Sequence record: FN394992.1
Origin: Enterobacteria phage CUS-3
DNA length: 2,827 nucleotides
Reading direction: 5' to 3' (one strand)
Positions 1 to 1,762 of this stretch are shown here, piece by piece. The notes below the pieces were generated by a model. It searched no databases. It was not told where the DNA came from and worked only from the letters and a program-made list of their open reading frames with translations. The translations under genes were made by a program, and so were the position numbers. Numbering within the stretch: the stretch's first letter is position 1; each line of letters opens with the position of its first letter.

Positions 1-438
1 ATGGCGCGCCCAACAAAGTATCAAGAGGCGTATGCCGAACAGGCACGCAAACTGTGCTTGCTGGGCTACACCGATGCAGAGCTTGCTGATTTCTTCGAAG
101 TCAGTGAGTCAACTATTAACAAGTGGAAGCTTGATTATCCTGAGTTTTCGGAGTCCATAAAAAAGGGTAAGGCCGTCGCTGATGCAGAAGTTAGTGACCG
201 TCTTTATCAACGCGCTATGGGCTTCGTGGCTCCAGACATCGATATTCGTGTTATTGAAAACAGAATTGTCGAAACTCCGCTTGAGAAGTATTACCCGCCT
301 GATACAACTGCCGCCATCTTCTGGCTTAAGAACCGACAGAAGGATAAATGGCGCGACAAGGTTGATCACGAGCTAACAGGCAAAGACGGCGGCGCAATTC
401 AGATTGAAACATCACCGATGAGCACTCTGTTCGGAAAA
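1..438 (+). CDS. Phage terminase small subunit (DNA-packaging protein), 3'-partial; the ORF-track end at 543 is an artefact of reading through the N-run
   Basis: ATG at 1 opens frame 1 with no stop for 146 readable codons (MARPTKYQEAYAEQARKLCLLGYTDAELADFFEVSESTINKWKLDYPEF...TGKDGGAIQIETSPMSTLFGK). The N-terminal segment LGYTDAELADFFEVSESTINKWK looks like the helix-turn-helix of small terminases. The C-terminal stretch resembles, from memory, the Sf6/P22-like small terminase family. Codon usage is typical enteric (about 55% G+C in the first 60 nt, counted by hand). The true stop is hidden in the gap. Confidence 0.75.
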
Positions 439-538
439 NNNNNNNNNNNNNNNNNNNNNNNNNNNNNNNNNNNNNNNNNNNNNNNNNNNNNNNNNNNNNN
501 NNNNNNNNNNNNNNNNNNNNNNNNNNNNNNNNNNNNNN
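439..538. other. Run of exactly 100 N: conventional scaffold gap of unknown length, or masked sequence
   Basis: Seen directly. 100 is the standard placeholder for an unsized gap. The coding frame changes across it (frame 1 before, frame 2 after), and the flanking genes are not normally neighbours in P22-like genomes. Confidence 0.9.
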
Positions 539-1762
539 TCTGAGCCATGTGTAAAATATTATGATGGCATTCTGTATCTGACGACCAGGGGGACATTAAG
601 TACTCAACCCGGTAGTTCATTGCACAGAAGCTCTGATTTAGGTACATCATGGAATTCTCTTCGCTTCCCAAATAATGTTCATCACTCAAACCTTCCTTTT
701 GCCAAAGTTGGCGATGAGCTGATTATTTTTGGCAGTGAGCGCGCATTTGGTGAGTGGGAAGGAGGAGAACCTGATAACCGTTATGCAGGAAACTATCCAA
801 GAACATTTATGACCAGAGTTAACGTCAATGAGTGGAGTCTGGATAATGTAGAGTGGGTTAATGTTACTGATCAGATTTATCAGGGCGGAATAGTTAACTC
901 TGCGGTTGGTGTTGGTTCAGTTTGTATCAAAGACAACTGGCTGTACTACATTTTCGGTGGGGAAGACTTTCTAAACCCATGGAGCATAGGGGATAACAAC
1001 AGAAAATATCCTTATGTTCACGATGGTCACNNNNNNNNNNNNNNNNNNNNNNNNNNNNNNNNNNNNNNNNNNNNNNNNNNNNNNNNNNNNNNNNNNNNNN
1101 NNNNNNNNNNNNNNNNNNNNNNNNNNNNNNNNNNNNNNNNNNNNNNNNNNNNNNNNNNNNNNNNNNNNNNNNNNNNNNNNNNNNNNNNNNNNNNNNNNNN
1201 NNNNNNNNNNNNNNNNNNNNNNNNNNNNNNNNNNNNNNNNNNNNNNNNNNNNNNNNNNNNNNNNNNNNNNNNNNNNNNNNNNNNNNNNNNNNNNNNNNNN
1301 NNNNNNNNNNNNNNNNNNNNNAGCGGCGGTGAAACAACGTCTTCAGCAGATGGTGCAATGATAACGTTGCATGGTTCCGGAAGCAGTACTCCACGTCGCG
1401 CGGTATATAACGCACTCGAACATCTTTTTGAGAACGGAGATGTTAAACCTTATCTTGATAATGTAAATGCTCTTGGTGGTCCGGGAAACAGGTTCTCGAC
1501 AGTTTATCTTGGCTCCAATCCTGTGGTTACCAGTGACGGAACATTAAAGACAGAGCCGGTCTCTCCTGACGAAGCATTGCTGGATGCCTGGGGTGACGTC
1601 AGGTATATCGCTTATAAATGGCTGAACGCTGTCGCTATAAAGGGGGAAGAAGGGGCGAGGATACATCATGGTGTAATCGCGCAGCAACTTCGTGATGTTC
1701 TTATTTCTCACGGACTCATGGAAGAAGAAAGCACAACATGCCGCTATGCGTTTCTTTGCTAT
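539..1762 (+). CDS. Tailspike/tail fibre protein, C-terminal portion (no start or stop in view; interrupted by N-run 1031-1321): sialidase-like Asp-box propeller segment plus C-terminal intramolecular chaperone (peptidase S74) domain; probable endo-N-acetylneuraminidase (endosialidase)
   Basis: Hand translation of frame 2 gives 164 stop-free codons for 539-1030 (SEPCVKYYDGILYLTTRGTLSTQPGSSLHRSSDLGTSWNSLRFPNN...GSVCIKDNWLYYIFGGEDFLNPWSIGDNNRKYPYVHDGH) and 147 stop-free codons for 1322-1762 (SGGETTSSADGAMITLHGSGSS...NRFSTVYLGSNPVVTSDGTLKTEPVSPDEALLDAWGDVRYIAYKWLNAVAIKGEEGARIHHGVIAQQLRDVLISHGLMEEE...). The 291-nt N-run between them is a multiple of 3, so both pieces share one frame. The ORF track missed this frame because it contains no ATG outside the Ns. 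SSDLGTSW fits the sialidase Asp-box S-x-D-x-G-x-[T/S]-W. SDGTLK ... HHGVIAQQL fits the autocleavage site and conserved core of the tail-fibre/endosialidase C-terminal chaperone domain. Confidence 0.8.
629..652 (+). other. Asp-box (BNR) motif S-S-D-L-G-T-S-W within the tailspike
   Basis: Codons agc tct gat tta ggt aca tca tgg at 629-652 in frame 2. The motif is characteristic of sialidase/neuraminidase beta-propellers, including phage endosialidases. Confidence 0.6.
1031..1321. other. N-run of 291 nt (97 codons) inside the tailspike reading frame
   Basis: Seen directly. The length is a multiple of 3, and the same stop-free frame is open on both sides. Confidence 0.9.
1532..1762 (+). other. 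C-terminal intramolecular chaperone / autoproteolytic domain (peptidase S74 type) of the tailspike, with the predicted self-cleavage motif S-D-G-T-L-K at 1532-1549; the domain continues into the gap
   Basis: TSDGTLKTEPVSPDEALLDAWGDVRYIAYKWLN...HHGVIAQQLRDVL follows the family pattern: Ser-Asp...Lys at the cleavage site, then a conserved (I/H)GxIAQ(E/Q) core. In this family the Ser is the cleavage site, and the domain is released after trimer folding. Confidence 0.7.

Follow-up and report, generated by a model that had tools for sequence, protein, structure and literature searches.

The window, by which we mean the whole 2,827-nucleotide stretch of Enterobacteria phage CUS-3 DNA analysed here (FN394992.1), is almost certainly not contiguous DNA but four CUS-3 fragments that were sequenced separately and joined on purpose, probably for prophage genotyping. 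CUS-3 is a well-known P22-like prophage carrying the K1 capsule O-acetyltransferase gene. Its late operon is P22-like, its tailspike is a K1F-like endosialidase, and its cargo gene neuO lies beside the attachment site. The initial annotation had noted that the terminase small subunit gene and the tailspike gene are separated in the window by only 100 N, and it had offered three explanations for this, namely a large region of unspecified size, two contigs joined incorrectly, or a radically reduced or rearranged structural module. We compared the window with phage records and with complete phage and bacterial genomes. We observed directly to which record series the window belongs, where the fragments map, how far apart they lie and that the adjacency is absent from the real genomes examined, which come from other strains.

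The window is composed of four blocks of real sequence and three runs of N (Table 1). All four blocks have a length divisible by 3 and a single open frame with zero stop codons. The small terminase gene, the 100 N and the tailspike fragment were all present where the initial annotation had placed them, and position 1030, at which its flagged region ends, is the base before the second N run. The change of reading frame that it described across the gap was also found, with the terS fragment in frame 1 and the tailspike fragment in frame 2, but this change is uninformative: the pieces come from different genes, and a spacer of 100 is not divisible by 3. The tailspike block opens mid-gene, and the two siaK1 fragments remain in frame over the 291 N. 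The 264 nt of siaK1 covered by the 417-N run correspond to 87 codons and the stop codon. An Rfam search of the whole window returned no match. Antisense open reading frames within 1-1030, such as one of 86 aa on the minus strand at 109-369, sit inside well-supported coding frame. The G+C content of neuO is 36%, compared with 48% for the terminase fragment and 42-48% for the tailspike fragments, and this low value is consistent with neuO being foreign cargo acquired by the phage.

Table 1. Features of the 2,827-nucleotide window.
Feature	Position	Strand	Description
Small terminase subunit gene terS, prophage CUS-3	1..438	+	146 codons, complete coding sequence minus the stop codon
100-N placeholder, size unspecified	439..538	.	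Stands for ~18.3-20.8 kb of prophage
siaK1 internal fragment, codons 487-650 of 981	539..1030	+	Part of the endosialidase catalytic beta-propeller
291-N spacer, exact size	1031..1321	.	Replaces siaK1 codons 651-747
Second siaK1 internal fragment, codons 748-894	1322..1762	+	End of the stalk domain and start of the C-terminal intramolecular chaperone domain
417-N spacer, exact size	1763..2179	.	Replaces 264 nt at the 3' end of siaK1 plus the 153 bp between siaK1 and neuO
neuO, polysialic acid O-acetyltransferase	2180..2827	+	Start codon to last sense codon; (AAGACTC)n tract absent

We searched phage records with the window by megablast. The results showed 17 matches of exactly 2,827 bases, with 98.1-100% identity, each consisting of four pieces over 1-2827. 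These sibling records (FN394218 and the range FN394986-FN395002, in which FN394992 alone was absent from the matches) are labelled 'Enterobacteria phage CUS-3' and come from named E. coli K1 strains. One of them, FN394995.1, bears the description 'partial proviral terminase gene, siaK1 gene and neuO gene, genotype GT_11' and carries four partial CDS features exactly at the four non-N blocks. No sibling among the matches was identical to the window; FN394995.1 is the nearest, with one difference at position 1750 (G in the window and C in FN394995.1), which is synonymous (GCG/GCC, Ala); C is also found at this position in FN394994.1. The N coordinates of FN394994.1 (GT_10) and FN394995.1 are the same as those of the window. 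The terS and neuO blocks run from the start codon through the last sense codon, the next codons in PA45B being TGA and TAA, and both siaK1 blocks have both ends on codon boundaries.

In the construction that we propose, four stretches of CUS-3, namely terS, two pieces of siaK1 and neuO, would have been sequenced separately, trimmed to fixed codon-boundary coordinates, and set in genome order and orientation. Runs of N would then have joined the fragments into one alignable 2,827-base string per strain ('genotype GT_xx'). The 100 N would be a conventional spacer of unspecified length, hiding about 18-21 kb with a complete and ordinary P22-type morphogenesis module, while the 291-N and 417-N runs would be placeholders true to size. 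From the record title and the layout, we infer that the fragments are PCR amplicons; the same evidence suggests that the source study is probably Mordhorst et al. 2009 and that its purpose was probably prophage genotyping. Mordhorst et al. 2009 (Environ Microbiol 11:3154-3165; pmid 19671077) is cited in PMC3046976 and PMC13001214. A full-text literature search for the accession numbers of the series found no paper that mentions them.

We mapped the four blocks to complete CUS-3 (CP000711.1, from RS218), the PA45B chromosome, phiv205-1 (MN340231.1) and the IMT5155 chromosome (NZ_CP005930.1). On CP000711.1, all four pieces were collinear on a single strand with 98.6-100% identity, and the spacings between them were 18,254, 291 and 417 bp. 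PA45B was 100% identical to all four blocks, with spacings of 18,558, 291 and 417 bp, and in phiv205-1 the terS and siaK1 fragments were 20,753 bp apart. The sibling record FN394994.1 comes from strain IMT_5155, and its four pieces were 100% identical to the IMT5155 chromosome of that strain, in which 20,754 bp lie where the record has 100 N; its 291- and 417-N runs are also exact to size. In both PA45B and IMT5155, the prophage occupies the tRNA-Arg gene upstream of yfdC. The 291 and 417 bp spacings were reproduced in three genomes (CP000711.1, PA45B and IMT5155). The siaK1 fragments and neuO mapped at 99.1-100% identity with exactly these spacings, and neuO follows siaK1 directly. The gene order of CUS-3 RS218 (Lederbergvirus, P22-like), terS ... 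siaK1-neuO-(int/att), is that of the window, whereas the real CUS-3 has 18,254 bp in place of the 100 N and 19 AAGACTC repeats in neuO where the window has none.

These distances bear out much of what the initial annotation had proposed. Its first-listed alternative, a large unsized region, agrees with the 18,254-20,754 bp found in CUS-3, PA45B, phiv205-1 and IMT5155, and the tailspike, which it expected 15-20 kb past the small terminase gene, truly lies 18-21 kb away. It had suggested mapping the flanks to a related complete prophage, and this placed terS and the siaK1 fragment 18,254 bp apart in CUS-3. It had also suggested seeking long-read support across the junction; the comparison of FN394994.1 with the complete IMT5155 genome is in effect a check of this type on an identically built sibling, and it gave 20,754 bp.

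The interval concealed by the 100 N contains 18 annotated genes in CP000711.1 (ECRS218_0004 to _0021) together with the first 486 codons of siaK1. The genes encode the large terminase, portal, scaffold, coat, head-completion proteins and three injection proteins, and include a cargo/immI region (mnt, ant). The corresponding interval of PA45B has the same P22-type gene series as CUS-3. The hidden morphogenesis genes that the initial annotation had proposed are thus present in the interval. The P22-type morphogenesis module was present between terS and the tailspike gene in every related complete genome examined, and the window itself has only N at this place. The late operon order of P22 and Sf6 is kept in CUS-3, PA45B and IMT5155, running from the small terminase, large terminase, portal, scaffold and coat genes through head completion (gp4/gp10/gp26-type), injection proteins and immI (arc/mnt/ant) to the tailspike. 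In phiv205-1 and IMT5155, an IS66 element lengthens the interval by about 2.4 kb. Between the injection genes and ant, the cargo/immI region of CUS-3 RS218 (locus L002, 7005-8926) holds two copies of mnt, two hypothetical genes and hkcB, and the corresponding region of PA45B and IMT5155 (compared at 14537-17446 of locus L003) encodes a Panacea-domain protein, a ClpP-like protease and Arc-family repressors. This difference probably accounts for much of the difference between 18,254 and 18,558 bp. The genes for the injection proteins are likewise of different lengths in RS218 and PA45B.

The same mapping bears on the possibility of a draft-assembly scaffold whose two contigs were incorrectly joined over the 100-N gap. 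A run of 100 N is also the convention for scaffold gaps of unspecified length, and no genome examined has the two flanks side by side. However, the order and strand of all four pieces are those of the real prophage, so nothing was 'wrongly' joined, and the fragment boundaries and N runs are identical in 18 sequences from different strains. Trimming to codon boundaries and to start and stop codons, as well as the clean removal of the neuO repeat, are operations that no assembler performs, and the title of the sibling record names partial genes and a genotype number. We consider a mis-join very improbable. The initial annotation had listed it as its second alternative, and this did not hold in view of the piece order and orientation and of a layout common to the 17 sibling records. 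Its reading of the window as a gapped sequence stood in part: the large unsized gap was correct, but the record is a concatenated multi-fragment typing record and not an assembly scaffold.

We then considered the adjacency itself in real genomes, using only window 1-1030 as the query and merging BLAST pieces into one place only if they lay within about 1 kb of each other. One or both pieces were matched by 679 of 5,426 complete E. coli genomes, and both pieces lay within about 1 kb in none of these 679 matching genomes. Among 50,697 phage records, 17 had both pieces together, all of them the sibling typing records, and the complete phage genomes of CUS-3 and phiv205-1 had the two pieces in two separate places.

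A real large deletion or rearrangement in the source prophage would also bring the two genes together; the whole head and tail-accessory module would have been lost, terS would abut the middle of the tailspike gene, and the remnant would have been kept only for siaK1 and neuO. CUS-3-type prophages do decay, as seen from the IS66 element inside siaK1 in IMT5155 and phiv205-1; there are also genomes in which just one of the two fragments has a match, and the genomes compared all come from strains other than the window's own. Nevertheless, placeholders such as N carry no sequence, and the window therefore cannot speak for adjacency. The layout is identical in all siblings, including that of IMT_5155, whose complete genome has 20,754 bp between the pieces, and none of the 679 matching complete genomes has them within about 1 kb. 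It is not credible that a deletion would end exactly at a codon boundary and at the same coordinate in 18 strains. We regard this explanation as having next to no likelihood, lower even than that of a mis-join, and the radically reduced or rearranged module of the initial annotation was refuted for every genome examined.

With the window read as a concatenated typing record, the juxtaposition of terminase and tailspike is not a real feature and there is no novelty in it; no new gene arrangement, mechanism or family is present here. What follows is only a caution. Multi-locus typing records joined by N stand in public phage collections labelled as phage sequence, and scans may mistake them for odd architecture, for example a terminase gene beside a tailspike gene or a neuO gene without its phase-variation repeat.

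We examined the neuO block in the same way. It matched Hexapep (PF00132, E=4.2e-11), and NCBIfam acetyltransferase families were matched below their cut-offs. The block maps to the neuO locus of CP000711.1, with the ATG at 2372. It reads ATGTC|GTTTTCC, with the junction between positions 2184 and 2185, and contains zero copies of AAGACTC; at this junction RS218 has 19 copies, PA45B has 20 and IMT5155 has 18. The phase-variation repeat of neuO begins two nucleotides after the start codon and is present in 2-93 copies in natural isolates (PMC3046976). A later study likewise left the repeat tract out of its neuO BLAST query (PMC13001214). Judged from the sequence, the absence of the repeat is an editing feature of the record and not of the phage. 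Cutting out the length-variable heptanucleotide repeat would give all records one length. Taken at face value, the window would present a repeat-free, permanently 'ON' neuO allele, which would be an artefact of this editing.

The terminase fragment starts with ATG and matched PHROG 309 (phrog_309), 'terminase small subunit', with E=2.1e-68. A PDB search aligned its residues 109-146, the C-terminal 38, with structures of the Sf6 gp1 small terminase (E=5e-11). No Pfam family matched the fragment, and the sole NCBIfam match was a sub-threshold and meaningless one to IS630; its identity was settled by the PHROGs and PDB searches. The fragment corresponds to CP000711.1 22705..22268, within the annotated CDS 22265..22705 'phage terminase small subunit', and is found with 98.6-100% identity just upstream of the large terminase gene in CUS-3, PA45B, IMT5155 and phiv205-1. 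The sequence match to Sf6 gp1 is confined to the C-terminal 38 residues, whereas the N-terminal two thirds have no match to it. This comparison of sequences suggests that the small terminase may be a mosaic with a DNA-recognition part different from that of Sf6 gp1. The annotation of terS varies among records: it is a 'hypothetical protein' in RefSeq genomes, and MN340231.1 and two ON4705xx phages list it as an 'HNH homing endonuclease'. In MN340231.1 (locus L007), terS lies at 25810-26250, and the label 'terminase small subunit' is carried by the coat gene at 19942-21195.

The tailspike blocks were identified as parts of siaK1. The open 164-codon frame at 539-1030 matched PF12217, the endosialidase catalytic beta-propeller, with E=1.6e-104, and the endosialidase structures 4hiz, 1v0e and 3gvk in PDB (E<=1e-79; 1.8e-83 reported). 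It is 100% identical to CP000711.1 4013..3522 and starts on a codon boundary. The block at 1322-1762 matched PF12219 (End_tail_spike, E=7.3e-33) and PF13884 (Peptidase_S74, E=8.1e-12) and corresponds to CP000711.1 3230..2790; the siaK1 CDS ends at 2526 in that genome. The domains of the endosialidase tailspike (GH58, K1F-type), namely the beta-propeller, the stalk and the C-terminal S74 intramolecular chaperone, are present in the window as fragments only. The tailspike of P22 and Sf6 is an endorhamnosidase, whereas the receptor-binding part of CUS-3 is a K1F-like endosialidase.

The tailspike region is also a site of insertion elements. In APEC IMT5155 (NZ_CP005930.1; locus L006, 6273-8585) and phiv205-1 (MN340231.1; locus L007, 6348-8669), the tailspike gene is interrupted close to its 5' end by the IS66 element (tnpA/tnpB/tnpC). 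Because the gene is split in this way, the CUS-3 copies of IMT5155 and phiv205-1 probably cannot make functional virions. IMT5155 has an intact, in-frame neuO gene with 18 repeats. The genome VTB96815v carries an IS3 element in the same tailspike region. In the complete genomes of MS8345 and SF-088, the endosialidase fragment was matched with 100% identity in one place only, in a gene annotated 'endosialidase catalytic beta-propeller domain-containing protein', and the terS of the window had no close match in either genome. These loci may be remnants of prophages, or they may belong to CUS-3 relatives whose terminase is different.
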